From: Enterobacteria phage Aplg8
Strand: one strand, 5' to 3'
DNA: 64,000 nucleotides
Sequence record: NC_054902.1
In this document: positions 2,252 to 61,783 of the stretch, one piece after another
Layout: each line of letters starts with the position of its first letter
How positions within the stretch are numbered: position 1 is the stretch's first letter
Notes under the pieces: generated by a model
Told to the model about the DNA's origin: nothing
Databases searched by the model: none
Seen by the model: the letters and a program-made list of their open reading frames with translations, nothing else
Position numbers and translations under genes: made by a program

Positions 2252-3711
2252 CAGATATTGTACTGAATGACTTACCATTCGTTGACGGCCCTCCTGCGGA
2301 GGGCCAGAGCCGCATTTCCTGGATTAAAAACGGCGAAGAAATATTAGGAGCTGACACACAGTATGGAAGCGAAGGTTCAATGAATAGACCTACAGTTTCT
2401 GTACTAAGAAATGTTGAAGTTCTTGATAAAAACATTGGAATACTTAAAACATCTTTAGAAACCGCAAATAGTGATATTAAAACCATCCAGGGCATCTTAG
2501 ATGTATCTGGTGATATTGAAGCTTTAGCGCAAATAAGTATCAATAAAAAGGATATTTCTGACCTCAAAACGCTAACCAGTGAACATACAGAAATATTAAA
2601 TGGAACTAATAGTACTGTTGACAACATTCTTGCTGATATTGGTCCATTTAACTCCGAGGCCAACTCTGTATACAGAACAATCAGAAATGATTTACTGTGG
2701 ATAAAGCGTGAACTTGGACAATACACTGGTCAAGATATTAATGGTCTTCCTGTTGTAGGAAATCCTAGTAGTGGAATGAAGCATCGCATTATTAATAATA
2801 CTGATGTCATTACTTCACAGGGAATACGTTTAAGTGAATTAGAAACAAAATTTATTGAATCTGATGTAGGTTCTTTGACCATTGAAGTTGGTAATCTTCG
2901 CGAAGAGCTTGGACCGAAACCACCGTCTTTTTCACAGACTGTTTATAGTCGTTTAAATGAAATTGACACTAAACAGACAACAGTTGAGTCTGATATTAGT
3001 GCTATTAAGACCTCAATAGGATATCCAGGAAATAATTCGATTATTACGAGTGTTAATACAAACACTGATAATATTGCATCTATTAATTTAGAGCTAAATC
3101 AAAGTGGAGGTATTAAACAGCGTTTAACCGTTATTGAAACTTCTATTGGTTCAGATGATATTCCTTCGAGTATTAAAGGCCAAATCAAAGATAATACAAC
3201 TTCAATCGAATCTTTAAATGGAATCGTCGGTGAAAACACTTCATCTGGTTTAAGAGCGAATGTTTCGTGGTTAAACCAAATTGTTGGAACTGATTCTAGC
3301 GGTGGACAACCTTCTCCTCCTGGGTCTCTTTTAAACCGAGTTTCTACAATTGAAACTTCTGTTTCAGGCTTGAATAACGATGTTCAAAACCTACAAGTAG
3401 AGATTGGTAATAACAGCACAGGAATTAAAGGACAAGTTGTAGCGTTAAATACTTTAGTAAATGGAACTAATCCAAACGGTTCAACTGTTGAAGAACGCGG
3501 ATTAACCAATTCAATAAAAGCTAACGAAACCAACATTGCATCAGTTACACAAGAAGTGAATACCGCTAAAGGTAGTATATCTTCTCTGCAAGGTGATGTT
3601 CAAGCTCTCCAAGAAGCAGGTTATATTCCTGAAGCTCCAAAAGATGGCCAAGCTTACGTTCGTAAAGACGGCGAATGGGTATTACTTTCTACCTTTTTAT
3701 CACCAGCATAA
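2248..3711 (+). CDS. wac: fibritin (whisker antigen control), coiled-coil with C-terminal foldon
   Basis: 487-aa ORF; heptad-rich coiled-coil segments; C-terminus [27 protein letters not shown] is the foldon trimerisation motif. Confidence 0.95.
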
Positions 3712-10635: not shown

Positions 10636-10643
10636 TTGATTAT

Positions 10644-10657
10644 GGGGCTTCGGCCCC
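10644..10657 (+). terminator. tetraloop hairpin GGGGC-TTCG-GCCCC after gene 18
   Basis: 5-bp GC stem with UUCG loop, 9 nt after the gene 18 stop; the same RNA hairpin recurs at 20236 and 41271 on the other strand. Confidence 0.6.
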
Positions 10658-10722
10658 TATTCTCGAGGAAACAAGTGATTATTTCTAAGTTTGTTACAAT
10701 AAAACCAAGAAATCATTCAAAA

Positions 10723-11280
10723 ATGTGGTCGACAATTCTGGGATATAAAGTATCATATCATGATACAGTATCTGTTCCAATAGAATTAATGCCAAAGAAT
10801 AGTAATAAAATAGTTGACGCTAAATGTGATTTGTGTGGTACTAAATTTAGTAGAAGCATTCAACTTTTAAATAGAACACCCACACATGCATGTAGAAAAT
10901 GTAGCATTAAACAAGTTGCTATTAAAAATTCGGAAGTTCAATCTGGAATAAGCAGACCATGGCAAAGAGGTGATAAACATCCTCGATGGACTGGCAAAAG
11001 AAAAGAGTTTGCATTATATGCTAGTAGAGTTCATTCTATAACTAAGTCAGCTAAAATAAGAAAAATCTGGTCAAAATGGCCGAATGCTGATAAAATAGGA
11101 ATGTGCGGCGTAGAAGGTGCTTATCAACTCGATCATAAAGTATCTATCAAATATGGATTTGATAATTTAATTCCGCCGGAAATTATAGCAAGTGTAAAAA
11201 ATTTAGAAATAATCACTTGGGAATCTAACCGAGAAAAGTCAAAAAGAAATAGCGTAGATCTTTGGGATTTACTAGAATGA
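10723..11280 (+). CDS. free-standing HNH-family endonuclease with N-terminal CxxC...CxxC zinc ribbon (putative homing endonuclease)
   Basis: ORF 10636..11280 begins with TTG inside the gene 18 terminator hairpin; first plausible ATG is at 10723 (MWSTILGY...). Motifs CDLCG...CRKCS and LDHKVSIKYGFDNL...NLEIITWESNREKSKRN (His-Me finger, H-N-N variant). Confidence 0.7.
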   Translation: MWSTILGYKVSYHDTVSVPIELMPKNSNKIVDAKCDLCGTKFSRSIQLLNRTPTHACRKCSIKQVAIKNSEVQSGISRPWQRGDKHPRWTGKRKEFALYASRVHSITKSAKIRKIWSKWPNADKIGMCGVEGAYQLDHKVSIKYGFDNLIPPEIIASVKNLEIITWESNREKSKRNSVDLWDLLE

Positions 11281-17269: not shown

Positions 17270-17282
17270 TCTTTGACGATTT

Positions 17283-17303
17283 AAGGGACCTTCGGGTCCC
17301 TTT
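17283..17303 (+). terminator. hairpin AAGGGACC-TTCG-GGTCCCTT after gene 23
   Basis: 8-bp stem with UUCG loop followed by TTT; 14 nt after the gene 23 stop. Confidence 0.7.
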
Positions 17304-17317
17304 AGTTGTTTTTATGG

Positions 17318-17325
17318 TATAAATA
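17318..17325 (+). promoter_or_regulatory. T4-type late promoter TATAAATA upstream of gene 24
   Basis: exact octamer 28 nt upstream of the gene 24 ATG. Confidence 0.7.
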
Positions 17326-17352
17326 AATCATATAAACCAAAAGGAAAGCGCA

Positions 17353-22124: not shown

Positions 22125-22742
22125 ATGTACCACTTTGTATATGAAACAACAAATCTAATAAATGGTAAAAAGTATATAGGAAAACACTCTACTGATGACT
22201 TGAATGATGGTTACCTTGGTTCCGGTAAGGCAATTCAGCAGGCTATAAAGAAATATGGTGAAAACAATTTCTCTAGAACAATACTAAAAGAGTTTAAAAC
22301 TTCCGAAGAAGCGTACATGTATGAAGAAGAAATTATAACTCCTGAAATAATAAAAAGCAAAAATTATTATAATATGAAACCTGGTGGAATTGGTGGAATT
22401 GTTATGACTACAGAGGTTATAGCAAAGATGAAAGAATCTTCCGCTAAGAGATTTGAAAACTCACCGGGCACGGTATTAGGTACAACTTGTTACACTAATG
22501 GAACTAAAAATATTTTTATTAAACCTGGAGAACTTGTTCCAGAAGGATTTGTAAAAGGGATGGTTCATCCTAATAGAAAGTCCAGAAAAGGATGTAAAGT
22601 CAAACCGACTACCACAGGAACTTTTTGGGTCAATAATGGTGCAATAAATAAATTAATACAACCAGACGGTATTATTCCCGACGGATTTATTAAAGGTCGT
22701 CTCATGAAAAGAGATTCTAAAGGCAAATTTAGTAAGGCATAA
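22125..22742 (+). CDS. segE: GIY-YIG homing endonuclease SegE
   Basis: 205-aa ORF; N-terminal YHFVY...GKKYIGKHS GIY-YIG module; located between inh and uvsW as in T4. Confidence 0.88.
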   Translation: MYHFVYETTNLINGKKYIGKHSTDDLNDGYLGSGKAIQQAIKKYGENNFSRTILKEFKTSEEAYMYEEEIITPEIIKSKNYYNMKPGGIGGIVMTTEVIAKMKESSAKRFENSPGTVLGTTCYTNGTKNIFIKPGELVPEGFVKGMVHPNRKSRKGCKVKPTTTGTFWVNNGAINKLIQPDGIIPDGFIKGRLMKRDSKGKFSKA

Positions 22743-33160: not shown

Positions 33161-35218
33161 CTACATTTTGAACTTTTTAGACATTCCGTTGATGTTAACC
33201 AAAGAAGCTAAGATTTGAGAAACTTCGTTTTCCTCTTCTTTTGATTCTTCTACAAGGAATTGATTAAATCCAGCCATTAGACGAACTTCACCAGTTTCCA
33301 TTAGATGGTCGCCATCATATACTGATTCCTCTAATTGTTCAGAAGGAGGAACGATTGTACCTTCGATTAGATACTTGTTATAAGCAGTTTCTTTCATAAA
33401 GTAAGTACTTACTTTATTAATCTTCAGTAAAATTCCACGTGGTAGAATAACTTCAGCTTCTGATGGAAATCCTGATAAATGACCCGGAACGATAACTTTG
33501 ATTCGCTCAGCTCCTTTAATTACCATACCCACGCTAGTTTCAGCATCTTCATTAGCATATGTAGAATGACTACCCATATGCATCAAATCTTCTGCATCAA
33601 CGGAACCTTCTCCTTCACCAGAAAATACTGCTCCGGAATCATCTAAGGCCATATAATTTTTACCATACTCACCAAAGATATTTGGTTTAAGTGATGTCGA
33701 TACGAAGTTCTTGAAATAGAACATTTTATTTTCAATGTTATGACGCAAAGTTTTAAAAGTAACTTCTTGTCCACGGTAAAGTGTAGTTCCTGGAGGAAGA
33801 ACTGAACCTTTAGCGAATGCAGAATCAAGCGTCTCAATATGTTTAATAGCTCGTTCCATATATTCTTCACGGGTAGAATCTGGTTTACCCAAAAGGAACG
33901 AGTTCATTTCAACATATGAATCTGCGCAATAATCTTCAATTACGTCAGATTCAGCCTGAGTTAATCCTTTTGGAGTTACTTCGGTGCTTGCATATTCATA
34001 CGCCTGAGCAGCGGATTCATCAATTAATTTATAAATGCCATTCATGACAAATTGAATAATAGCTGTCTTTTCATCTGGCGTAGCTTTAGAACCTTTAACT
34101 AAATCATTGACAATTTTCTTAATAACATCAAAGCTATTAGAAATATTAATGTCAGCAAGATCGCTTAAAATTTTATCAGTTTTATAATCAAAAAATTCTT
34201 TATTCTTTAAATATTCTTGAGAACTTTGATATGTTATATCGCTCTGCAACTTGATAGATGGATCACGTAAACGTGCATGGGCTAATGCAATATGATTTCG
34301 GAAGCTTTCTAGTTCATAATCGTTAGATTTAAAACGAGAAGCACTTCTCATACCACCGATAGCTCCTTTGCTGAAGTTTGAACCAATCTGAATAACGCCA
34401 GAGTTCATTGGTCCTTCTGCTTTATATACCGGAACTTTAGATTCAAACTCTTGATATTTCTTAGCAGCGAAGCTATCACCCTGAAGTGAAGCATCAACAG
34501 TAGAATATTGAGCTTGTGCTGCTAATCGACGACTAATTTTAGTTTTCTGAATAACAGCTTGATCCGTACGCTTATCATTTTCTAAAGCAATAGAAGCAGC
34601 AACTGCGACAGCTTTAGGAACAGCATTACCTGTTTTAACGTCTACATAAACATCACCAACCTTTGATTCAACTTTTGTGAATAACTCAGTTGAAATAGGA
34701 GGTACACCTGGAATGTCTTCTAAATTGGCATTTTTACGGTAAACCATAATATATGCATATTTCTTATCATAGTCCCAGATTTCCTTTAAAAGAACATATC
34801 GACCTGCTCCTTTAGTACGTACTAAACGGTCAGCAATAACTTGCATTTGACGAGCTGCGCCATTTGTTTTACTCTTTAGTACGCGGAATAAGCATGCATC
34901 AATTTTATACTGTTTCATTGTTTGAAGAGCAGTATCAAAAACAGCATTAATGACGCCAATTGGATTTCCACCTAAGTTTTTAAGTTTAACTAATGATAAT
35001 TTCTCGTTGACACCTATCATTACGATATGCATCATTTTGTCGCCTGGCTTAACGTTTTTATTCGTATCACCGCCAGAGGTGTATGTACAAAATCTAAATC
35101 CAGGAAGCACGCTTTCTTCACCGGCTTGAATAGCAAAAATTTGAGGTATTTTATGCTTAGGATTTAAGTTAACAACCGGCGCCGAAGCGCCGTCAAATAA
35201 TTCTGTAATAAGTTCCAT
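33161..35218 (-). CDS. Alt-like ADP-ribosyltransferase paralog (T4 alt.-2/alt.-1 position)
   Basis: 685-aa ORF; N-terminus MELITELFDGASAPVVNLNPKHKIPQIF parallels Alt; C-terminal R-S-E motifs (LYRGQ, FVSTSL, SEAEVILPRG). Confidence 0.8.
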   Translation of the reverse strand: MELITELFDGASAPVVNLNPKHKIPQIFAIQAGEESVLPGFRFCTYTSGGDTNKNVKPGDKMMHIVMIGVNEKLSLVKLKNLGGNPIGVINAVFDTALQTMKQYKIDACLFRVLKSKTNGAARQMQVIADRLVRTKGAGRYVLLKEIWDYDKKYAYIMVYRKNANLEDIPGVPPISTELFTKVESKVGDVYVDVKTGNAVPKAVAVAASIALENDKRTDQAVIQKTKISRRLAAQAQYSTVDASLQGDSFAAKKYQEFESKVPVYKAEGPMNSGVIQIGSNFSKGAIGGMRSASRFKSNDYELESFRNHIALAHARLRDPSIKLQSDITYQSSQEYLKNKEFFDYKTDKILSDLADINISNSFDVIKKIVNDLVKGSKATPDEKTAIIQFVMNGIYKLIDESAAQAYEYASTEVTPKGLTQAESDVIEDYCADSYVEMNSFLLGKPDSTREEYMERAIKHIETLDSAFAKGSVLPPGTTLYRGQEVTFKTLRHNIENKMFYFKNFVSTSLKPNIFGEYGKNYMALDDSGAVFSGEGEGSVDAEDLMHMGSHSTYANEDAETSVGMVIKGAERIKVIVPGHLSGFPSEAEVILPRGILLKINKVSTYFMKETAYNKYLIEGTIVPPSEQLEESVYDGDHLMETGEVRLMAGFNQFLVEESKEEENEVSQILASLVNINGMSKKFKM

Positions 35219-35221
35219 GAT

Positions 35222-37315
35222 TTATCCTTGAACGAACTTGTAAGGCATGTTTGTAATATCTATGCAAGACGCAATAATTCCAAGAGATGATTCTACTTTC
35301 TGTTTAACATTTGATGAAACAAATGATGCAAAGTCAACTCTGTCTTCTATTTCAATATCACCTGTCATTGCAACTACTTCGCCAGTTTCCATTAAACGGT
35401 CACCGTCATAAATTACCGATTCGGTGAGTTCTTCGGTGGTCATAACTTCAGCTTGAATGAGTTTTGTATTATTAGACGTGGTTCCGTCATTATTAGAAGC
35501 ATCAGTTATTTTATTAACTTTGACCATCAATCCGCGCGGTAGAATAACTTCGGCTTCTGTTGCTATTCCGAGACTTCCTGGATATACAACATTAACTTTA
35601 TGAGCTCCATCAATTGCCCATCCTATTTGAACTTTAACGTATTCAGGATTTTCTTTATACGCTCTTATTTCGTTTGGATTAATAGTTATTCCTTCTTCAT
35701 TTTTATCAACTGTCAATTCATTACGAGCTTCTGGTTCTAAAAGACCAATACCAGCATGTGTAATTCCAAAACGTCCAAAAATGATAGGAGTTAAAGAAGT
35801 AGATACAAAATTTCTGAAATAGAACACTTTATTTTTAACTAGTGCTTCGTATATAGGAGCAGTCATACTTTGAGCACGATAAACTGTGATGCCTTCCGGT
35901 ATGCGGTCACCATTTTCAAAAGCTGAATCTAAGTTATTTATAGCAGATTCAATTTCTTTTTCACTCATTACATCATATCGTTCTGGATTGTAACGACCTA
36001 AAAGAAGATTATTGATGTCAGTATATCCTGAACCGCAATATTCTCTAATGCCACGCTTTTGTGATGGAGTATATTTAGAACCATCGCGGGCAATAGTAAT
36101 ATCAATCATTGGACCAGCACCAATTCCAGAAAAACTGTAAATCATTCGTTTGAGGAATTTAGTTTTTGCTGCGTTCCAGGAATTTTTAGTTATTTCTTCC
36201 CAGACTTCATCTGGTTGTCCTTTACGATTTTTATTATGATTAGCAAGCCATTTATCTTTATAATCTTCAAAGAATTGATTTACAGCTGCTGCGTATTTCT
36301 CTAAACATTTTATTGAAGTAGTTGGTTCATTTTTAATTGCATTAAAAATTACTTCTTTAATTTTTTCTGAAACTTCACCGACTTGACTCATTGGAAAGAA
36401 TTTATAATCATAGTGAAGTTCATCTGCCGTTCCTTTAGCAATAATTTTTGCTGCCTTTGTTTTAGAAGCTAATGAATTAATTCCAATTTTCATTTCTTCT
36501 GCTTCGGGAATTAAAGGTGCAGTAGCTGGTTTATTAAAATTAGCTGCTGTAGATTCATACTTCTGGAATAATTCACTTTCAAATCTAGAAGATTCCAATG
36601 ACTGACTTTGTGCAATTGCTCTACGGGAAATTTTAACTTTAACGATTACGGCTTGGTCAGAACGTTTATCATTTTCTTGTGCAATAGATGCAGCAATTGC
36701 CTCATTTTTGGTTACTTGAGCTCCAGTATCTTTATTGATATAAACATCACCGACTTTCGATTCAACTTTAGTAAAGAGCTCGGTACTAATTTCCGGAACT
36801 CCTGGAATGTCTTCTAGTGATACATTTTTACGATGTATAAGAATATATGCATACTTTTTATCGTAATCCCAGAGTTCCTTAAGAAGGACGTATCTGCCAC
36901 CTGAACGACTGCGGATGAGTCTATCAGCAATAAGTTGAATTTGTCGAGCTTGACCGGCGGTTTTAGACTTAAGAATACGGAGCATACAGGCATCAATTTT
37001 ATACTGACGCATCGTTTGCATCGCAACAGTAAAAACTGAATTGATGTAATTAATTGGGCTTGGACCGAGACCTTTTAATTTAGCAATTGAACCTTTAGCA
37101 GTTAATGTAAAAGGAACAATATGCATCATTTTATCGCCCATCTTTAAATCGCGATTAGTATCACCTCCAGATGTATAGGTACACAAACGAAAGCCTGGTT
37201 GTTCAATTGCGTCATCAACATGAACTGAAAAAATTTGCGGTATTTTCTTCTTTGGATTTAAGTTTGTAATCGGAAGAGTAGTATCTTCGTCAAATAATTC
37301 TGTAATGAGTTCCAT
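35222..37315 (-). CDS. alt: Alt ADP-ribosyltransferase (packaged, modifies host RNA polymerase)
   Basis: 697 aa from the second Met (MELITELFDEDTTLP...); R-S-E motifs (VYRAQ, FVSTSL, TEAEVILPRG); late promoter upstream. Confidence 0.88.
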   Translation of the reverse strand: MELITELFDEDTTLPITNLNPKKKIPQIFSVHVDDAIEQPGFRLCTYTSGGDTNRDLKMGDKMMHIVPFTLTAKGSIAKLKGLGPSPINYINSVFTVAMQTMRQYKIDACMLRILKSKTAGQARQIQLIADRLIRSRSGGRYVLLKELWDYDKKYAYILIHRKNVSLEDIPGVPEISTELFTKVESKVGDVYINKDTGAQVTKNEAIAASIAQENDKRSDQAVIVKVKISRRAIAQSQSLESSRFESELFQKYESTAANFNKPATAPLIPEAEEMKIGINSLASKTKAAKIIAKGTADELHYDYKFFPMSQVGEVSEKIKEVIFNAIKNEPTTSIKCLEKYAAAVNQFFEDYKDKWLANHNKNRKGQPDEVWEEITKNSWNAAKTKFLKRMIYSFSGIGAGPMIDITIARDGSKYTPSQKRGIREYCGSGYTDINNLLLGRYNPERYDVMSEKEIESAINNLDSAFENGDRIPEGITVYRAQSMTAPIYEALVKNKVFYFRNFVSTSLTPIIFGRFGITHAGIGLLEPEARNELTVDKNEEGITINPNEIRAYKENPEYVKVQIGWAIDGAHKVNVVYPGSLGIATEAEVILPRGLMVKVNKITDASNNDGTTSNNTKLIQAEVMTTEELTESVIYDGDRLMETGEVVAMTGDIEIEDRVDFASFVSSNVKQKVESSLGIIASCIDITNMPYKFVQG

Positions 37316-45616: not shown

Positions 45617-47009
<1,393 letters not shown>

Positions 47010-47013
<4 letters not shown>

Positions 47014-50059: not shown

Positions 50060-51238
50060 TTAAAAGTATTTTTTAAAACTCATCATAACTTTATCATCAA
50101 CATCATTATCAATCTGTGCAACAAGATAAGATGACAGCTCTACTTCTTGCGGTGCAGATTGAACATTATCAGAATTAAGATATTCACGAATCCAAGGATA
50201 TGGATGTTTAACCGGAGCATCGGTAATTGGGCATGGAAGACCACACTGTTTCATACGAGATACAGTTAAGTAATCAATAAAGCTCCACATGCTATTTGTA
50301 TTTAATCCAGGAACATCGCCATCTTTAAATAAATGAACTGCCCAATCTTTTTCTTGGCGGTTAACTTCCATGAAAATATCAACTGCTTCTTGTTCACACT
50401 CTTGAGCAATTTTAACCCATTCATCGCCATCAGTACCAGATTGAAGTTGACGAATAATATATTGGGTGCCTTTAAGGTGAAGCTGTTCATCGCGTGCAAT
50501 GAACTTCATAATCTTGGCATTACCTTCCATGATTTCCATGTTCTTATGGAAGTTAAAGGTACATGCGAAAGATACATAAAAACGAATAGCTTCCAATGCA
50601 TTGATTACATGCAAACAGAGGTAAAGAGATTTCATTAGCTCACGCTTCCAATATGTCTCATGCTCAATAGCATCTTCAATAACGTCTTCGTCTGCATTAA
50701 TTTCTTTTTGGTATTCGATATCAGCTTTAGCGTTTTCCCAATAACGAGTTTTAATCAGAACATCATCATAATAACGTCCAATGGATTCAGCACGTTTCAT
50801 AATAGCTTCATCTAATACAATTTCATCAAATACCTTCGATGGATCAGTATAAAGATTTCGCATGATATGAGTATATGAACGACTGTGAATAGTTTCACTA
50901 AAAGTCCATGTAGCAACCCATGTATCAAGGCTTGGGTCTGAAATTAATGACATAAGTACAGCAGATGGCGCGCGACCCTGAATGCTATCTAAAAGTGATT
51001 GATACTTCAAGTTGTTAGTAAAAATATTTTGCTGATACTGAGGAAGCTTATTAAACTGTGCAGCATCCATCATCAAGTTTACTTCTTCGGGACGCCAAAA
51101 AAATGATAAAGATTTCTCAATAAGTTCTTCAAATACTCTATGTCGTTGAATATCATATCGAGCTAAACCCAATCCAGAACCAAAAAACATCGGCTCAGTC
51201 AAAATATTAACAGGGGATGTATTAAAAACTGTGCTCAT
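50060..51238 (-). CDS. nrdB: ribonucleotide reductase small subunit (uninterrupted)
   Basis: 392-aa continuous ORF with di-iron/tyrosyl radical R2 features; no intron. Confidence 0.93.
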   Translation of the reverse strand: MSTVFNTSPVNILTEPMFFGSGLGLARYDIQRHRVFEELIEKSLSFFWRPEEVNLMMDAAQFNKLPQYQQNIFTNNLKYQSLLDSIQGRAPSAVLMSLISDPSLDTWVATWTFSETIHSRSYTHIMRNLYTDPSKVFDEIVLDEAIMKRAESIGRYYDDVLIKTRYWENAKADIEYQKEINADEDVIEDAIEHETYWKRELMKSLYLCLHVINALEAIRFYVSFACTFNFHKNMEIMEGNAKIMKFIARDEQLHLKGTQYIIRQLQSGTDGDEWVKIAQECEQEAVDIFMEVNRQEKDWAVHLFKDGDVPGLNTNSMWSFIDYLTVSRMKQCGLPCPITDAPVKHPYPWIREYLNSDNVQSAPQEVELSSYLVAQIDNDVDDKVMMSFKKYF

Positions 51239-51968
51239 AAATTTTCCTCTTTAAAATTCTGCCGCGTTTCCAACCTGGCGGTATAATATCATCTTTACCT
51301 ATAAGCGTGCATTCACTTCCATTATTAATCCATTTCTTACCGCGGATTCCTTTATAATCTCTTGGTTGTATTTTATCAAACTTTGCATCAAGTTGATATG
51401 ACCATCTAAATCCATAGGCATATTGAAATTTACCCTCAGCACAATATTTGATATTTGACCCGTTTCCATTAACTGACCTGGACGCTGCCGCAATAGAGTG
51501 AAAGGTTTCTATGAAATCCCCATCTAATGAGAATTTATGTATTTCGATAGATGGGCATGCATACCTATTCACGTTTGATACATGTTGTTTAGTTTCGTTT
51601 TTATGATGCTTGCCTAACATTCCTCTAGGATGAGGATTATTTTTCCAATATTTCTTAAAGAAATCAGAATTAGCTTTAGCAAATAATTTTCTGTGCAAGC
51701 TATACAATCTGTTATTAATTCTATTACCAGCTTTATCTGTTGCCATTAACGTTAACGCAGAGGCAAGCCCAAAATGGCCTTCATTTATCTTACATAGTAA
51801 TAGATGCGCTATAAAATGTTCTCTAGCTGTTAATTCAACTAAATTTTCTTTATCATCAGAACCTCCCATGCATTTAGGGACTATATGATGTGTCTCTTTA
51901 TATTCAGATAAAGGTTCCCGAGCCTGAGCTCGGGAAATTAGGTCATTATAGATTTTTTGATAATTCAT
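51222..51968 (-). CDS. mobE: HNH homing endonuclease (MobE-like) between nrdA and nrdB
   Basis: 248-aa ORF; HNH motif HHIVPKCMGGSDDKENLVELTAREH; C-terminal basic DNA-binding region; ATGA overlap with nrdA. Confidence 0.75.
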   Translation of the reverse strand: MNYQKIYNDLISRAQAREPLSEYKETHHIVPKCMGGSDDKENLVELTAREHFIAHLLLCKINEGHFGLASALTLMATDKAGNRINNRLYSLHRKLFAKANSDFFKKYWKNNPHPRGMLGKHHKNETKQHVSNVNRYACPSIEIHKFSLDGDFIETFHSIAAASRSVNGNGSNIKYCAEGKFQYAYGFRWSYQLDAKFDKIQPRDYKGIRGKKWINNGSECTLIGKDDIIPPGWKRGRILKRKIYEHSF

Positions 51969-54786: not shown

Positions 54787-55647
54787 TTACACCGCCATCT
54801 TTCCTTTAATAGGAGGGTGTGATTCATAGTTGTTAAGAATAAAATTATGCGGCTTTGCGAATTGACTCAACCAAAATACCTGCGATTCTGTGTCCCATTC
54901 ATCAAATTCATCTGGAAATTTTAATTGCAATTCGCATAAATCCATAGGTTCACGACGCAAAATTTCTTTACATTGCTCTACGTGATTCATATAGATATGA
55001 GTATTACCACCAGAAAATATCAAATCTCCGGGAATAAGATTACACATCTTAGCTACAATATGCGTCAAGGCAGCGTACGAGGCAATGTTGAATGGCAAGC
55101 CCAAGAAAACATCTACACTTCTTTGGTACCACTGCAAATCCAAATAGCCATTACGCACATTAAACTGATAGAACATATGACAAGGCGGTAATGCCATATA
55201 TTTAAGTTCAGCTGGATTCCACGCAGAAACAATTTGACGCCTATCATTCGGCAGTTTTTTAATACGATCAATAACTTCTACAATTTGGTCTACACCGCCA
55301 AAATCACGCCATTGTTTTCCATAAATTGGACCAAGTTCACCGCTATGGTATCCTAAATCTTTTGCCTGATTTTCGTAATTTTCATCCCAAACTGTTTTGC
55401 CTTGGATTAATGAATCATGCTGAATTAATCGTAAATCATTGACATTTGTGCTTCCTGACAAAAACCATATTAACTCAGCAATGCATGCATTCCAGGCGAG
55501 CTTTTTAGTTGTTACTGCAGGAAAACCTTTGGTTAAATCCCAACGCAATTTAGTACCGAACAAAGCAATTGTTCCTGTGCCTGTTCGGTCATCGGTTTCA
55601 TAACCATTTTCAAAAATGTCTTTAATTAAATCTTGGTATTGTTTCAT
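54787..55647 (-). CDS. td: thymidylate synthase (uninterrupted)
   Basis: 286-aa continuous ORF; active-site region PPCH..FYQ; no intron. Confidence 0.96.
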
Positions 55648-55684
55648 TTAGTACCTTATATAAATTATAATACATTTTATGAAG

Positions 55685-56050
55685 CTAATAATTAAACGGT
55701 TTAGCATCAAATTTTCTCTCAATTTCAGGCGTGAAATATAATTCTTTACCGCGTTTGGAAAAACGACCAATAATATGATAATTATTCTCATCAAACGTGA
55801 TATTGCCGATATCCATAGCTTTCAACCAAATATCGATATTTCTGTCAAGCTTTATATCAAAATTCCAATACGGAGAACTATTACCAAAAATACTGCAAGC
55901 GGATTCAGTGAAACAACTGCTATAAATTTTGTCTTTAGGAACTATTAATTGATAGACGCCTTTAATAAACTGAGGACCTTGCCATTTTGGTTGTTTCGCG
56001 TCTTTTTCTAATAGAATAGGGTAATAATTAAAATTCATATTTTCCGCCAC
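55685..56050 (-). CDS. hypothetical protein inserted between frd and td
   Basis: 121-aa ORF filling a 411-bp gap between the frd stop and the td start. Confidence 0.6.
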   Translation of the reverse strand: MAENMNFNYYPILLEKDAKQPKWQGPQFIKGVYQLIVPKDKIYSSCFTESACSIFGNSSPYWNFDIKLDRNIDIWLKAMDIGNITFDENNYHIIGRFSKRGKELYFTPEIERKFDAKPFNY

Positions 56051-56058
56051 GTATTATT

Positions 56059-56881
<823 letters not shown>

Positions 56882-56885
<4 letters not shown>

Positions 56886-57241
56886 ATTACCTCCCACTGA
56901 AAGGGGCCAGAAGCAAATCCGCTATCTTTAATCATTTTAACTAAAGTTACCATTCCTCTGTTAACTGCTTGCGCGATTTCATCAAAAACTTCATCACTAT
57001 CACCATAAAGATCGCTAAAAAGTTCTAACACATTCTTCTGAACTTTTAATTTACAGCCAACAAATTCGCCTACAGTAAATTCGTTTCCGCCAACTCCAGC
57101 GTAAAACGTAATTACACCAGTTAATGGTCTTTCACTAGAACATAGGTCGTGTGATAAATTAATATAAGCCGTCCCGGGTACAGTTTTAAGTTGGCAACGA
57201 ATACTTACTCGAGCAATTCCAGCTACATGAATGTCAGACAT
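56882..57241 (-). CDS. hypothetical protein (T4 frd.2 position)
   Basis: 119-aa ORF. Confidence 0.6.
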
Positions 57242-57251
57242 AGTATTTTCC

Positions 57252-57494
57252 TCAAATAGACTTTTTCACAATTTTCCAATCAGCTTTAAACTGATCAACG
57301 TCAGAGTGATAAATCCAAAATCCTGCGCTTTCACCGTCTTCATAAAGCGGACACCCATCGCATTCATCTTCCCATCCCATATCACGCAAAAGATGTTCAG
57401 CTTTTTCAATGAGTTCAGAATCTTTACCGATGATATTAAAATACCATTTACCTCTAACTTCTGAATCTTTGATGCTCTGACGTTGTAATCTCAT
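57252..57494 (-). CDS. hypothetical protein (T4 frd.3 position)
   Basis: 80 aa from the ATG at 57494 preceded by AGGAG; the longer track ORF would start inside the upstream promoter. Confidence 0.6.
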   Translation of the reverse strand: MRLQRQSIKDSEVRGKWYFNIIGKDSELIEKAEHLLRDMGWEDECDGCPLYEDGESAGFWIYHSDVDQFKADWKIVKKSI

Positions 57495-57515
57495 TTTATT
57501 CTCCTTAGTTGATAA

Positions 57516-57549
57516 GGCTATAGTATCACTACCATAGCCTGTTGTAAAC
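57516..57549 (-). promoter_or_regulatory. early promoter (GTTTAC-N18-TACTAT) with -10 inside a 10-bp inverted repeat
   Basis: plus GGCTATAGTA tcac TACCATAGCC; minus-strand -35 at 57544-57549. Confidence 0.55.
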
Positions 57550-57551
57550 AA

Positions 57552-57854
57552 TTATTTTTGAATTTTATCAAGCCACTTACCAAGCTTAATCATTTCTTTA
57601 GTAGCCTTTTCCATACTTCTGAACTTAACCAATAGAGGATAGGTATCGACACCCATAACTAAGCTAGTTACAAGACTGTGTTCACCCACAAGCCATAACG
57701 AATACGTTTGAATATCGAGCCCGTAATTTCTGTCTTTATGGACCCGTACACCCATCACTTCAAATTTCTCACTAGCTTTTTCTACCGCATCCAGGAAATC
57801 ATCTTTAGTCATATTAGGCCTTAAAAGTTTTTCGCAAAAGTTCAATGATTTCAT
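57552..57854 (-). CDS. hypothetical protein
   Basis: 100-aa ORF; the start may instead be the ATG at 57812 (TAA-ATG junction with the upstream ORF). Confidence 0.5.
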   Translation of the reverse strand: MKSLNFCEKLLRPNMTKDDFLDAVEKASEKFEVMGVRVHKDRNYGLDIQTYSLWLVGEHSLVTSLVMGVDTYPLLVKFRSMEKATKEMIKLGKWLDKIQK

Positions 57855-58194
57855 CTACATTGTTTTCGTCAACAATACAGTGAATTTTTGTTACGCCAGA
57901 AACCTTGTCTTTGACTTCATCTTTTTCAGAAGTCGGTTCTTTATACTCACGAAAACAATGAAATTCGTCTTCGCAAATTTCTAAAAGTCTATCTTTGAGG
58001 TAAAAATGCTTTCCATTTGCGCATTCAATGTGTTTTACTGCTTTATATCCATTAGCGACGGAAACTTCTTTAACTTCAAACCATCCGCCATTATCTCGAA
58101 TCGCTTTAACTATTGATGAATTAGAACGTGGGCTATAATTAATAAATGTATCAATAAGTCTTGGAACAAGCTCATACTTTTTGCCGATATACAT
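57814..58194 (-). CDS. hypothetical protein
   Basis: 126 aa from the ATG at 58194 with GAGGAAA Shine-Dalgarno; a hairpin at 58215-58232 lies between this start and the upstream ORF. Confidence 0.55.
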   Translation of the reverse strand: MYIGKKYELVPRLIDTFINYSPRSNSSIVKAIRDNGGWFEVKEVSVANGYKAVKHIECANGKHFYLKDRLLEICEDEFHCFREYKEPTSEKDEVKDKVSGVTKIHCIVDENNVDEIIELLRKTFKA

Positions 58195-58240
58195 TACGGT
58201 TTCCTCATTTTGATAGGGGCTTGATAGAGCCCCTTGATAA

Positions 58241-58468
58241 TTATTGTTCAATCAATCCCATGTAAAATTCTGCGTCTTCAGAATCCATGCCATCACAATA
58301 TTCATTAGCCATAAAGCGGGTGAGGTCTTCAAGAGGACCTTCAATAACGATTTGAATACTCCAAAACTTAGAATCTTGCACGCTTGTGATACTAAGTTCA
58401 GGATAACGATTACGAATAATTTCTTCAATATATTCAAAATCAACGATGTCAATATCAACTTTAGCCAT
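58241..58468 (-). CDS. hypothetical protein
   Basis: 75 aa from the ATG at 58468 ([11 protein letters not shown]...) with GAGGAAAATAAT upstream; early promoter at 58512-58541. Confidence 0.55.
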
Positions 58469-58511
58469 ATTATTTTCCTCTTTAATCATCAGCAGTATTG
58501 CCGATAGTTGT

Positions 58512-58541
58512 ATAGTACCATGGAAGGACAAGGATGTAAAC
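58512..58541 (-). promoter_or_regulatory. early promoter (GTTTAC-N18-TACTAT)
   Basis: minus-strand reading GTTTACA tccttgtccttccatgg TACTAT downstream of the gene 32 terminator. Confidence 0.5.
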
Positions 58542-58571
58542 CGTTTTGTGAAAAAAATTTGAAATAAAAAA

Positions 58572-58591
58572 GGGGACCTCTAAAGGTCCCC
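58572..58591 (-). terminator. gene 32 intrinsic terminator (GGGGACC-loop-GGTCCCC + U-tract on minus strand)
   Basis: plus strand AAAAAAGGGGACCTCTAAAGGTCCCC, 23 nt past the gene 32 stop. Confidence 0.7.
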
Positions 58592-58613
58592 AATTAATTA
58601 GTAATATAATCTA

Positions 58614-59522
58614 TTAAAGGTCATTCAAAAGGTCATCCAGGTCCGTGTCATCAGCACTAGATGAACTGCCAGAGCTTGAGCTCATAAAATCATCTTCAGT
58701 TTTTGTATTGAAGTCATCAACATTGAATGCATCCAAATCATCAGCAACTTTATCAGCTTTCTTAGCAGCAGTTGCAGCGGCACCGCCCATCACAGCAGTT
58801 CCCATAACTTGACCGAATTTAGTGCTCAGTTCTTCAAACGATTTGAATTTATCTTTAGAAGTCATTTCAGAAAGGTCAACCATTTGTTCGAACAGTTCTT
58901 TCTGGAAAGATTCATCGTCAATGTTTGGAATCGCAGATTGATTCAGGAATTTAGATTCGTCGTAGTTACTAAATCCAGAAACCTGTTTAACTTTCAGTAC
59001 AAAGTTAGCACCTTCCCACGGACAAGTTACATCAACCGGAGTTTCACCCATTTCAACATCAACTGCAATCATTGCATTGATTTTATCCCAGATTTTCTTA
59101 CCGAAACGGTATTTAAATACTTTACCTTCATTTTCTGGAGCAGCTGGGTCTTTTACTACAAGAATGTTAGCCCAGTAAGAAGTTTTACGTTTAACAAGAC
59201 TGTACTCTTTATTGTCAGTGTTGTACAAATCATTTTTACTGATGTACTGACATACTGGACAAGAATCGTAATCACCGTGGGTAGATGAACAGTTTTCAAT
59301 ATACCATTTACCATTTTTCTTGAAACCGTGATTTACAAGAATTGCGAATGGTGCTTGTTCATCATTTTTAGACGGAAGAAAACGAATTACTGCTTGACCG
59401 TTACCCGCATTGTCGAGTTTCAGCTTCCACTCGCCTTTATCTTCAGAAGAAAAACCACCTTTATTTCCAGCCAGTTTAGCCATTTGTGCAGCGAGTTCAG
59501 CAGTAGATTTACGTTTAAACAT
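58614..59522 (-). CDS. 32: single-stranded DNA-binding protein gp32
   Basis: 302-aa ORF; Zn-binding H/C cluster; acidic Ser/Asp-rich C-terminal tail; sequence matches T4 gp32 as I recall it. Confidence 0.96.
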
Positions 59523-59600
59523 TTTTATTTCCTTTTTAATTTAATTAACAGTTGGTGCTATGACGATGTATGACCTCATAGCTGGTCAGTGAGATAATTA
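59523..59600 (-). promoter_or_regulatory. gene 32 autoregulatory translational operator (pseudoknot + A/U-rich unstructured leader)
   Basis: minus-strand leader ...GACCAGCUAUGAGGUCAUACAUCGUCAUAGCACCAACUGUUAAUUAAAUUAAAAAGGAAAUAAAAAUG: nested complementarity GCUAUGA/UCAUAGC and UGACC/GGUCA, then UUAAAUUAAA repeats before the AUG. Confidence 0.65.
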
Positions 59601-59621
59601 TAATTTATTTATAATAAGCAA

Positions 59622-60275
59622 TTAATACTTACAAGATTTCACAGTTTCAATAAAAACTTTTTTAGCTTCCTGTGAATCGATATTTAAAATTTTTCTATAA
59701 GCTTTTAACTTTATAGAATAATTGTTCCAAACTAAATTATCAGTTTGTTCATCATGTTTATCAATTATATTTAAAAACGAATCAAGCAAGATAAACGTCT
59801 CAAACGAAATTATATTCGATTGAAGTAGTTTAAAAATATAACTTGATTGAACTTTTGGATTATACTCAAAGATTTCTTTAAAAGCAGAAACTTCAACTTT
59901 TTTACTAAAATAATAAATGTTGCGAATATCTTCTTCAAACTTAAATTTAATTTGCTTTAAACGTCCGATATATTCACGATAAAACACAAGTGCATCAGCG
60001 TCAGAGATGTCACCAATCCAAGCATCTTGGTTAGCAACCAAATTGCTTATAAAGATTAAAGCAAGTTCCTTTAATTTATATTTTTCTGATAACTTCTGGA
60101 AAAAATACTTATCCCTTCGCTTTTGATAAGCGGCATCAGACACCCGCATGCACCAATTATACTTAATAACATCATACTTTCCATTCATATGTTGTTTTAT
60201 CATTAAGTATAATTTATAAACTGATTTACCATCAATGTATCTTTCACCACCAGCAGGCATGCGGAGTTTAATCAT
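59622..60275 (-). CDS. 59: helicase loader gp59
   Basis: 217-aa ORF; synteny between genes 32 and 33. Confidence 0.9.
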   Translation of the reverse strand: MIKLRMPAGGERYIDGKSVYKLYLMIKQHMNGKYDVIKYNWCMRVSDAAYQKRRDKYFFQKLSEKYKLKELALIFISNLVANQDAWIGDISDADALVFYREYIGRLKQIKFKFEEDIRNIYYFSKKVEVSAFKEIFEYNPKVQSSYIFKLLQSNIISFETFILLDSFLNIIDKHDEQTDNLVWNNYSIKLKAYRKILNIDSQEAKKVFIETVKSCKY

Positions 60276-60610
60276 AGTAGAAAATCTAATGTATTAGTTT
60301 TTTCACAACGAACAACAGAAGGACGTAAAAGATTTTCGTCAATAGCTTCTGACTGAATTTTTTCAATTATACCCGAAGGAATAAATTTAGCAAATTGAGT
60401 TTCAGGAATAGAGTTTTCTTCTAAGAATGCTGTCGTAGCTTCAAGATAACTCATTCCAAACTCTTCTACCATTTTTTCAATAATAAATCCATTTTCTTGA
60501 CGATCAAGAAGCTTTGCTATTTCATCCTTTTCTTTCTTGATTGAAAGTTCTTTTTCTGAAAGACCGGTCTCATCGACCGGACGAATATCATTTAGAGAAA
60601 ACTGTGTCAT
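60272..60610 (-). CDS. 33: late transcription co-activator gp33
   Basis: 112 aa from MTQFSLNDIRPV...; the ORF track extends 3 codons upstream. Confidence 0.85.
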   Translation of the reverse strand: MTQFSLNDIRPVDETGLSEKELSIKKEKDEIAKLLDRQENGFIIEKMVEEFGMSYLEATTAFLEENSIPETQFAKFIPSGIIEKIQSEAIDENLLRPSVVRCEKTNTLDFLL

Positions 60611-60857
60611 AAAGTTCAACTACCTCTTCAGTTTCAGCTTCAAACACATCACGGTTATCTTTATGATACAAAGCTAATAGACGATTAAACATCTTACCAT
60701 CAACGCCAAGTTCATCTTTGGCACGAATTCGAATATCTTTAATCAGTTCATTATAACCGGAAATTTTCAGTTTATGATCAGATGCTTCTTTAATAAATTT
60801 AGCCAAGTCTTCGCCATGGATAGCTTCATCAAATTCAACCATTTCTTTTTTAGCCAT
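60588..60857 (-). CDS. dsbA: DsbA, dsDNA-binding late transcription enhancer
   Basis: 89-aa ORF; synteny. Confidence 0.8.
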   Translation of the reverse strand: MAKKEMVEFDEAIHGEDLAKFIKEASDHKLKISGYNELIKDIRIRAKDELGVDGKMFNRLLALYHKDNRDVFEAETEEVVELYDTVFSK

Positions 60858-60865
60858 TATTCACC

Positions 60866-61783
60866 TCAAAATTCATTAATGCTATTAGTTAATTTAGAAA
60901 GACCCGCTTTTACAAAATATGAATAAATTTTGCCACGCGGTGGTAATTTATATGAATTATAGTAATTCACAATGTTTGAAGCAATATTATCAGGAATATA
61001 ATCAAAATCAATTAGAACTAAATTTTCTTTATAACGATTATATTCAGATTCTGTGAGAAGCACCTTAGCTTGCTCACGGTCATTAGCAATAGCTTCAACG
61101 ATTGAAGTTTTCATCGAAGGAGTTCGTTCACCTTCAACTTTGGTAAACCAAAAGTCAGATCGTACTTTAACTGAAGCAACGTTATCCTTTTTATCGCCTT
61201 TAAGGATTTTAGTCATACAGTCAATTTCAGCAGAACCGCTTTTAATTTTAACCCATTTCTTATGCATCGGCGACCATTGCTTAACATTTGGATATTTGTG
61301 AAGTTGAGTAAAGTCACCATCCGACGAAATGATTAAAATCTTATGTCCTTCTAAAGAGAACTTTTTAACAAGAACAGCAATGTGGTCATCTGCTTCATAC
61401 TTATCAATATCCATAACAATGTATGGCATATAAGCTTTCAATTCATCTATAACTTTGTGGCTGGATTCAAAATAACCTTCCCAGTCCCAAGTCGATTCTT
61501 CTCGTGCTTTTCCACGGTTTTTCTTATAATAATACGCGAAATCACGACGCCAGTATCCAGATTTCGCGTTATCAATACACAGTACAATTTTAGTGTATCC
61601 AAGCGTTTTTGCTTTTTTGACATTAAACTTAATTGAGTTCAATATCAAATGACGAACCATTGATAAATTAATTTTTTCTTTATCTGGAAAGTTTACCAAA
61701 GCAGTTGAAAGCGCAATTTGACTAAAGTCAATTAAGCAGATTCCTTCTTTGTAATCTTCATCCAGCATCATTTCTAAATCCAT
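60866..61783 (-). CDS. rnh: RNase H (5'-3' exonuclease / FEN family)
   Basis: 305 aa from MDLEMMLDEDYKEGICLIDF...; FEN-type acidic residues; synteny upstream of gene 34. Confidence 0.92.
   Translation of the reverse strand: MDLEMMLDEDYKEGICLIDFSQIALSTALVNFPDKEKINLSMVRHLILNSIKFNVKKAKTLGYTKIVLCIDNAKSGYWRRDFAYYYKKNRGKAREESTWDWEGYFESSHKVIDELKAYMPYIVMDIDKYEADDHIAVLVKKFSLEGHKILIISSDGDFTQLHKYPNVKQWSPMHKKWVKIKSGSAEIDCMTKILKGDKKDNVASVKVRSDFWFTKVEGERTPSMKTSIVEAIANDREQAKVLLTESEYNRYKENLVLIDFDYIPDNIASNIVNYYNSYKLPPRGKIYSYFVKAGLSKLTNSINEF

Follow-up and report, generated by a model that had tools for sequence, protein, structure and literature searches.

An empty segG site and a T2-type gene 32 operator between genes 59 and 32 of Enterobacteria phage Aplg8

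Phage T4 carries the GIY-YIG endonuclease gene segG between gene 59 and gene 32, and the corresponding gap in Enterobacteria phage Aplg8 raises the question of what this stretch contains and how it came to differ from T4. We addressed it in a window of 64,000 nt of sequence record NC_054902.1, a Tequatrovirus (T-even) segment that is colinear with T4 ~89.9–152.9 kb at 95–98% identity over most of its length, and in which genes 33, dsbA and rnh stand upstream of gene 59 in the same order as in T4 (Table 1). The original prediction that no gene separates 59 from 32 held: the gap is exactly 99 nt long and contains no ORF of at least 20 aa on either strand, and just two ORFs reach into it, both antisense and starting inside gene 32. 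Read along the minus strand, the gap holds CUGACCAGCUAUGAGGUCAUACAUCGUCAUAGC, which is the pseudoknot of the gene 32 translational operator, and next ACCAACUGUUAAUUAAAUUAAAAAGGAAAUAAAAAUG, and the leader (59588..59523) adjoins the gene 32 AUG directly 5′ on the mRNA strand. We conclude with high confidence that the gap is the intact, uninterrupted 59–32 control region of a T2/RB51-type T-even phage into which no homing endonuclease gene has entered. In such a region, the gene 59 stop codon, a promoter module, the pseudoknot and a UUAA(A) tract with its Shine-Dalgarno sequence and AUG would all be accommodated, in this order, within 99 nt.

Table 1. Coordinates of the 59–32 gap, its flanking genes and the homing-endonuclease loci covered by the window
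Feature	Window coordinates	Strand	Basis or state
Gene 59, helicase loader, 217 aa	59622..60275	minus	Pfam T4_Gp59_N, E 1e-53; T4_Gp59_C, E 1e-51
Middle-promoter-like site TGCTTGATTCGTTTTTAAATATAAT, 3′ part of gene 59	59764..59788	minus	pattern match
Gene 59 stop codon TAA	59624..59622	minus	sequence
59–32 intergenic region (empty segG site), exactly 99 nt	59523..59621	minus	ORF list
MotA-box-like TGCTTA, core of candidate middle promoter	59615..59620	minus	TGCTT-N13-TATAAT pattern
T4-type late promoter consensus octamer TATAAATA	59606..59613	minus	18 copies in window vs 8.9 expected
Sigma-70 −10 hexamer TATAAT, 13 nt past TGCTT	59597..59602	minus	sequence and pattern match
H-type pseudoknot, gene 32 translational operator	59557..59588 (~−66 to −35)	minus	same sequence as T2/T6; covariation
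Pseudoknot stem 1, 5 bp, UGACC/GGUCA	59588..59584 with 59575..59571	minus	
Pseudoknot loop 1, 1 nt, A59583	59583	minus	
Pseudoknot stem 2, 7 bp, GCUAUGA/UCAUAGC	59582..59576 with 59563..59557	minus	
Pseudoknot loop 2, 7 nt, UACAUCG	59570..59564	minus	
A/U-rich unstructured leader ACCAACUGUUAAUUAAAUUAAAAAGGAAAUAAAA with UUAA(A) repeats	59523..59556	minus	sequence
Shine-Dalgarno AGGA in leader	59533..59530	minus	sequence
Gene 32 AUG	59522..59520	minus	sequence
Gene 32, ssDNA-binding protein, 302 aa	58614..59522	minus	Pfam gp32, E 3e-67
Intrinsic terminator 3′ of gene 32, GGGGACCUUUAGAGGUCCCC then U run	58572..58591	minus	terminator scan
segD	17281..17340 (60 bp, for T4 106522..107310)		absent; alignment, tblastn
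segE	22125..22742		present; 98.5% identical
nrdB intron with I-TevIII	50562..50565 (empty site)		absent; nrdB a contiguous 392-aa ORF
mobE position, between nrdA and nrdB	51222..51968	minus	248-aa HNH+NUMOD1 ORF
td intron with I-TevI	55095..55100 (empty site)		absent; td a contiguous 286-aa ORF
segG			absent; alignment, tblastn
Extra HNH-like ORF between genes 18 and 19	10636..11280		

The T4 order of the region is gene 32 (146948..147853), SegG (147909..148541) and gene 59 (148543..149196), which together with the published location of segG at 32/59, with gene 32 as its target (PMC2988022, Table 1), confirms the segG placement from which the original prediction started. Its further claim, that there is no room for segG in Aplg8, is also right, because a gene of 633 nt cannot fit into a gap of 99 nt, and a tblastn search with T4 SegG at E ≤ 1e-3 returned no SegG-like protein in the whole window. 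The last 135 nt of gene 59 up to the stop codon share 93% DNA identity with T4; in the alignment T4 homology ends at that stop codon (TAA in the window, TGA in T4) and restarts at CCAGCTATGAGG, the restart point CCAGCUAUGAGG being inside the pseudoknot, so that the window has ~38 nt (AATTGCTTATTATAAATAAATTATAATTATCTCACTGA) where T4 has the 633-nt segG. The T4 segG ATG lies 1 base past the gene 59 stop codon and the segG TGA falls inside pseudoknot stem 2, an overlap between gene end and pseudoknot that has been described by Borjac-Natour et al. (PMC535899). SegG drives the exclusion of T2 gene 32 (PMC2330249 and PMC2988022, both citing Liu et al. 2003), and as a free-standing endonuclease it acts through intronless homing (PMC2988022). 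Compared with this system, the window has both the insertion address, 59/32, and a T2-type gene 32 of the kind that SegG targets, but the endonuclease gene is missing, and the window would represent the recipient (target) allele and not the element. Homing by SegG, seen as gene 32 marker exclusion, would find its natural recipient in a phage that combines an empty site with a gene 32 of T2 type.

The pseudoknot is identical in sequence to that of T2, for which an NMR structure is available (Holland et al. 1999, cited in PMC3014915). A pseudoknot-free MFE fold of the 102-nt leader recovered only the stem 2 hairpin and was unremarkable (z = −1.1), and since nested folding is uninformative for a pseudoknot, we used covariation, aligning nine distinct gene 32 leaders from IMG/VR loci, RB69 and VR5 and comparing them with two controls, 500 shuffles and alignments in which the 3′ partners were slid by 1–3 columns. 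Standard pairs occupied 95.4% of the pseudoknot pair cells, vs 73.5% in the shuffled alignments, none of which (0/500) reached the observed value, and vs 24–50% in the slid ones. Across the nine leaders, 8 of the 12 pseudoknot pairs change on both sides, with stem 2 fully paired (100%, 4/7 pairs compensatory; variants GCUAUGA/UCAUAGC, GCUACGA/UCGUAGC, GGUGCAA/UUGCAUC and GAUGUGA/UCACAUC) and stem 1 paired at 89% (4/5 pairs compensatory). This covariation agrees with the phylogenetic evidence on which the operator pseudoknot has classically rested. The pseudoknot and the UUAAA-rich leader that the original prediction placed in the gap are both present.

Downstream of the pseudoknot, the A/U-rich leader is unpaired in the MFE fold, and the AGGA within it is flanked by UUAA, UUAAA, UUAAAAA and UAAAA; repeats of the UUAAA/UAAA type take part in repression (PMC535899). 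No Rfam family for the gene 32 leader was found in a permissive search of 58000..61000, so no curated model was applicable, and the best matches, L20_leader at the gene 32 terminator and DUF2815 RNA at the A/U-rich leader, were dismissed as far under their gathering scores. We also noted that a sequence directly 3′ of the pseudoknot, AACUGU(U/A)AA (window 59545..59553, minus strand), is kept in the window, T4, RB69, VR5 and locus L025, and that it recurs, at times in two or three copies, in the leaders of distant relatives (loci L009–L027 and L086), some of them without the pseudoknot; this sequence may be a specific recognition element and not generic A/U-rich sequence. The gene 59 match ends ~10–30 nt before the gene 32 ATG in CC31/Karamvirus-type and related loci (L009–L015, L017, L018 and L023, ~2440..2500), and ~10–16 nt before it in those of CC31 type. 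Because gene 59 ends so near gene 32, at ~10 nt in the Karamvirus-type relatives, there is no intergenic pseudoknot in these loci, whose last ~45 nt of gene 59 contain three AAACTGT repeats.

The original prediction was that the gap holds only the operator. The operator is there, but the description is slightly too narrow, because the 5′-most ~35 nt of the gap hold TATAAATA and a TGCTT-N13-TATAAT arrangement, and this stretch is probably promoter sequence, with a late promoter overlapped by a candidate middle promoter made up of the MotA-box-like TGCTT and TATAAT. None of 100 shuffles reached the number of TATAAATA copies seen in the window, and the copy in the gap lies upstream of gene 32 and on its strand, as a late-promoter sequence should. 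TATAAATA is found 4–26 nt upstream of the pseudoknot in T2/T6/RB51, RB69, the Klebsiella Marfa-like loci (L019/L030), L021/L022 and L025, five diverged lineages in which the sequence around it is otherwise unrelated. MotA boxes, which mark MotA/AsiA-dependent middle promoters, have the consensus (a/t)(a/t)(a/t)TGCTT(t/c)A near −30, at 11–13 bp from a TAnnnT −10 element. The gap shows AATTGCTTAT, then 11–12 nt, then TATAAT, so that the TGCTT core and the spacing fit this consensus and the last two box positions are off it. With 20 matches to the TGCTT-N13-TATAAT pattern vs 15.6 expected, the window shows no enrichment, and we therefore treat the middle promoter as a candidate only. TATAAT is kept in T2, T6 and RB51, and modest support for the module comes from T6, whose 5 gap differences from the window all lie outside TGCTT, TATAAATA and TATAAT. 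A scan for sigma-70 −35/−10 pairs, which is blind to MotA-type and late promoters, found no more sites than in shuffles.

The T4 counterparts of these motifs lie inside segG, with TATAAATA at −158 and TGCTTA...TATTAT at −236, vs −91 and −98 in the window, and the T4 gene 32 middle and late promoters have been reported as embedded in segG (PMC2988022). Further upstream, the TGCTTGATTCGTTTTTAAATATAAT site in gene 59 is identical in T4, where it stands at −856 from the gene 32 ATG. We infer that it is the segG-specific promoter, which has been located to the 3′ part of the gene preceding segG (PMC2988022).

Among named phages, RB51 has a gap 100% identical to that of the window, and the T2 gap, also 99 nt long, is one base apart from it, an A/G difference directly after TATAAATA. 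T2, T6, RB51 and the window agree in their pseudoknot, UUAA(A) tract, TATAAATA and TATAAT, with no difference of substance. In T6 (L088, 6629..6710), CAA takes the place of the gene 59 stop codon TAA, and gp59 is annotated as 3 residues longer, extending into the gap promoter module. T4 shares with the window gene 59, gene 32, stem 2, the ACCAACUGUUAA element, the A/U-rich leader, the Shine-Dalgarno sequence and the AUG, but its stem 1 has 4 bp (UGCC/GGUA) vs 5 bp, its loop 2 has 5 nt vs 7 nt, and its leader has one UUAAA repeat more, three vs two. We refer to these as the T4-type and T2-type operator alleles, the former with the segG stop codon inside stem 2 and the latter with an empty site. 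RB69 likewise has an empty site, with TATAAATA just upstream of a pseudoknot of the same topology and an A/U-rich leader with UAAA repeats; its pseudoknot differs from that of the window by compensatory substitutions (GCUACGA/UCGUAGC, and AUACC/GGUAU in stem 1), and its leader is longer. Experiments on this RB69 region, IC59-32, have demonstrated autogenous repression by gp32 (Borjac-Natour et al. 2004, PMC535899), and the footprints of RB69 gp32 and T4 gp32 differ (PMC535899).

A 57-nt T2-type operator query covering the pseudoknot, searched in a phage record collection, matched 355 phage records, 342 of them at at least 99% identity, and all 40 rows sampled from these were intergenic. The T4-type operator was found in 141 records at at least 95% identity, and SegG at the same identity was likewise found in 141. 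Sampled annotated rows of the T4-type operator at this identity overlap a gene, mostly one named homing endonuclease or segG, and none of the sampled rows was intergenic. With 355 T2-type records vs 141 with the T4-type operator or segG, the empty site is the majority state, at about 72%, and operator allele and segG-site state appear fully linked. The empty segG site is a common, already described, T2-like state. One sampled record stood apart: in ON506924.1 (vB_EcoM_SCS4, 145422..145469) the T4-type query matched, at 89.6%, a stretch where no gene is annotated; it is the sole such record in the sample and may represent a third variant or a segG-less T4-type allele.

The linkage extends into gene 32, whose DNA identity to the window is 99.0% in RB51, 97.7% in T2 and 97.2% in T4. 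The first 100 nt are the same as in T2 at 99 of 100 positions, and this closeness to T2 is indirect evidence that the gene may carry the sequence that SegG recognises in T2. The SegG cut presumably lies a few hundred bp into gene 32. The window, T2, T6 and RB51 have an extra Gly codon that T4 is without. In a comparison of seven sequences, polymorphisms within the first 65–390 nt of the gene co-segregate with segG, namely GC/AA at 59471-70, the Gly-codon indel at 59459-57, and positions 59228 and 59130. This is as expected from SegG-driven co-conversion of gene 32 (PMC2330249 and PMC2988022, citing Liu et al. 2003), and the 355-to-141 split together with the operator/segG linkage offers a population-level illustration of the process. 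We speculate, as a rather doubtful extension, that segG invasion remodelled the autoregulatory RNA of gene 32, thereby shifting the level at which gp32 synthesis is set; if true, a homing element would have altered the regulation of an essential host gene and would not have been neutral.

The mechanism of the gp32 operator is established for T4, T2 and RB69 (PMC535899, PMC3014915), and because the pseudoknot sequence is identical to that of T2, gp32 binding and autogenous repression would be expected in Aplg8 as well. Under this scheme, gp32 present in excess of single-stranded DNA would nucleate at the pseudoknot and spread cooperatively 3′ along the A/U-rich leader, blocking ribosome binding and in this way setting the level of gp32. 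Transcripts could reach the operator by read-through from the upstream genes (33/59) and also by initiation at the predicted gap promoters. Late promoters of the T4 type initiate ~6 nt downstream of the octamer in a gp55/gp33/gp45-dependent manner. Starts from the gap promoters, at ~59600 (late) and ~59590 (middle), would lie 2–12 nt upstream of the pseudoknot, which would put them near the processed end of the T4 transcript. RNase E processes T4 gene 32 transcripts at −71, a site reported to be conserved in five T4-related phages (PMC3014915).

An empty site could also have arisen by secondary deletion of segG from a T4-like ancestor, so that the gap would once have been invaded. Loss as well as gain is known for homing endonuclease genes, and occupation of the 59/32 position is old and recurrent, as seen from SegG homologues at the same site in Dhakavirus (VR5, 58% identity) and Gaprivervirus (RZ, 40%). 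However, the ~38 nt in the place of segG are without similarity to it, with no segG remnants seen, and hold a promoter module of their own, and the empty sites of phages from other genera (RB69, the Marfa-like loci, L021/22 and L025) share the layout in which TATAAATA precedes the pseudoknot. A precise loss of segG would moreover leave a T4-type operator behind, which is at odds with the apparently full linkage of operator type and segG (141 records each), and a T4 genome that lost segG would lose the gene 32 promoters embedded in it (PMC2988022). We therefore set secondary loss aside as the main explanation on the strength of the separate promoter module, the shared layout and the operator–segG linkage, and consider it very unlikely.

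The uninterrupted control region that we favour has also to be distinguished from a gap whose 5′ part (59589..59621) is mere spacer with chance motifs in A/T-rich DNA, gene 32 being transcribed solely by upstream read-through. The absence of enrichment of the MotA-type pattern in the window, a sigma-70 scan no better than shuffles and the ~9 copies of TATAAATA expected by chance in the window would all fit a spacer. Such a spacer is nevertheless improbable given that five diverged lineages, in which the surrounding sequence is otherwise not conserved, all have TATAAATA just 5′ of the pseudoknot, that the five T6 differences spare TGCTT, TATAAATA and TATAAT, and that the middle and late promoters of T4 gene 32 are reported to lie directly upstream of it, in segG (PMC2988022). 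We give next to no credence to the proposal that the gap also encodes a small unannotated protein or a separate small RNA: annotation often overlooks short genes, but we found no other support for a hidden product, and against it stand the lack of any ORF of at least 20 aa, on which ground a small gene was rejected, the lack of an Rfam match at gathering score, and the fact that 0 of the 40 records sampled from the 355 with the operator annotate a feature there.

The intact 59–32 region is one of several places where the window is without an element present in T4. Six T4 homing-endonuclease loci are covered by the window, and four of these are empty (segD, I-TevIII, I-TevI and segG). The td and nrdB introns are missing, as had been predicted, with both genes contiguous (286 and 392 aa) and the T4 intron segments without counterpart. 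The window also has an extra HNH-like ORF at 18/19 and a longer mobE variant. The endonuclease complement was predicted to differ from that of T4 in both directions; with 4/6 T4 loci empty, the difference runs mostly in one. The ORF at the mobE site is nearly identical to T4 MobE (141 aa) over its first 60 residues and diverges over the remainder, and it overlaps the start of nrdB by 17 nt. The beta-beta-alpha-metal motif of HNH endonucleases has a conserved His and Asn/His residues. Residues D166-H167, N189 and N198 of the 18/19 ORF are invariant in 26 homologues, as are C64, C67 and C86 of a CxxC...CxxC zinc ribbon, and its AlphaFold model has a pLDDT of 86; searches of Pfam and NCBIfam gave no HNH profile match, and Foldseek returned nothing significant. 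Homing endonuclease genes number 15 in T4, 4 in RB51 and 1 in T2 (PMC2993671, Table 5), and the difference from T4 is thus not unusual, T4 being the outlier.

All parts of this region are ordinary and represent already published biology, with nothing new in the observation itself. The segG polymorphism at 59/32, the T2-type operator and the uneven spread of homing endonucleases are textbook or review T4 biology, and because everything here is already in the literature, the locus carries little weight as a discovery. Its use lies in annotation, where the gap can be entered as promoter and translational-operator region of gene 32, and the phage as lacking segG, segD and the introns of td and nrdB. 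Given these states, the phage is likely to be the recipient when SegG, I-TevI and MobE drive gene conversion in cells that it infects together with T4-like phages.

Other parts of the window also depart from T4. In the 23/24 spacer, which is without segD, a terminator-like hairpin precedes TATAAATA (17318..17325). The alt region (33181..36508) is rearranged relative to T4, with extra alt-like segments of 69–79% identity to T4 alt/alt.-1/alt.-2. Several small ORFs of the td-frd-frd.1-frd.2 region (55651..57820) and of 46711..47013 are missing from T4, among them a 121-aa ORF between td and frd (55685..56050, phrog_1928), whose RB51 homologue, RB32ORF229c, bears the annotation ‘flanked by 9 bp repeat’. 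Further ORFs without a T4 counterpart lie at 56640..57241 and 57552..57854, and the same is true of a 100-aa ORF adjoining pseT (phrog_2364).
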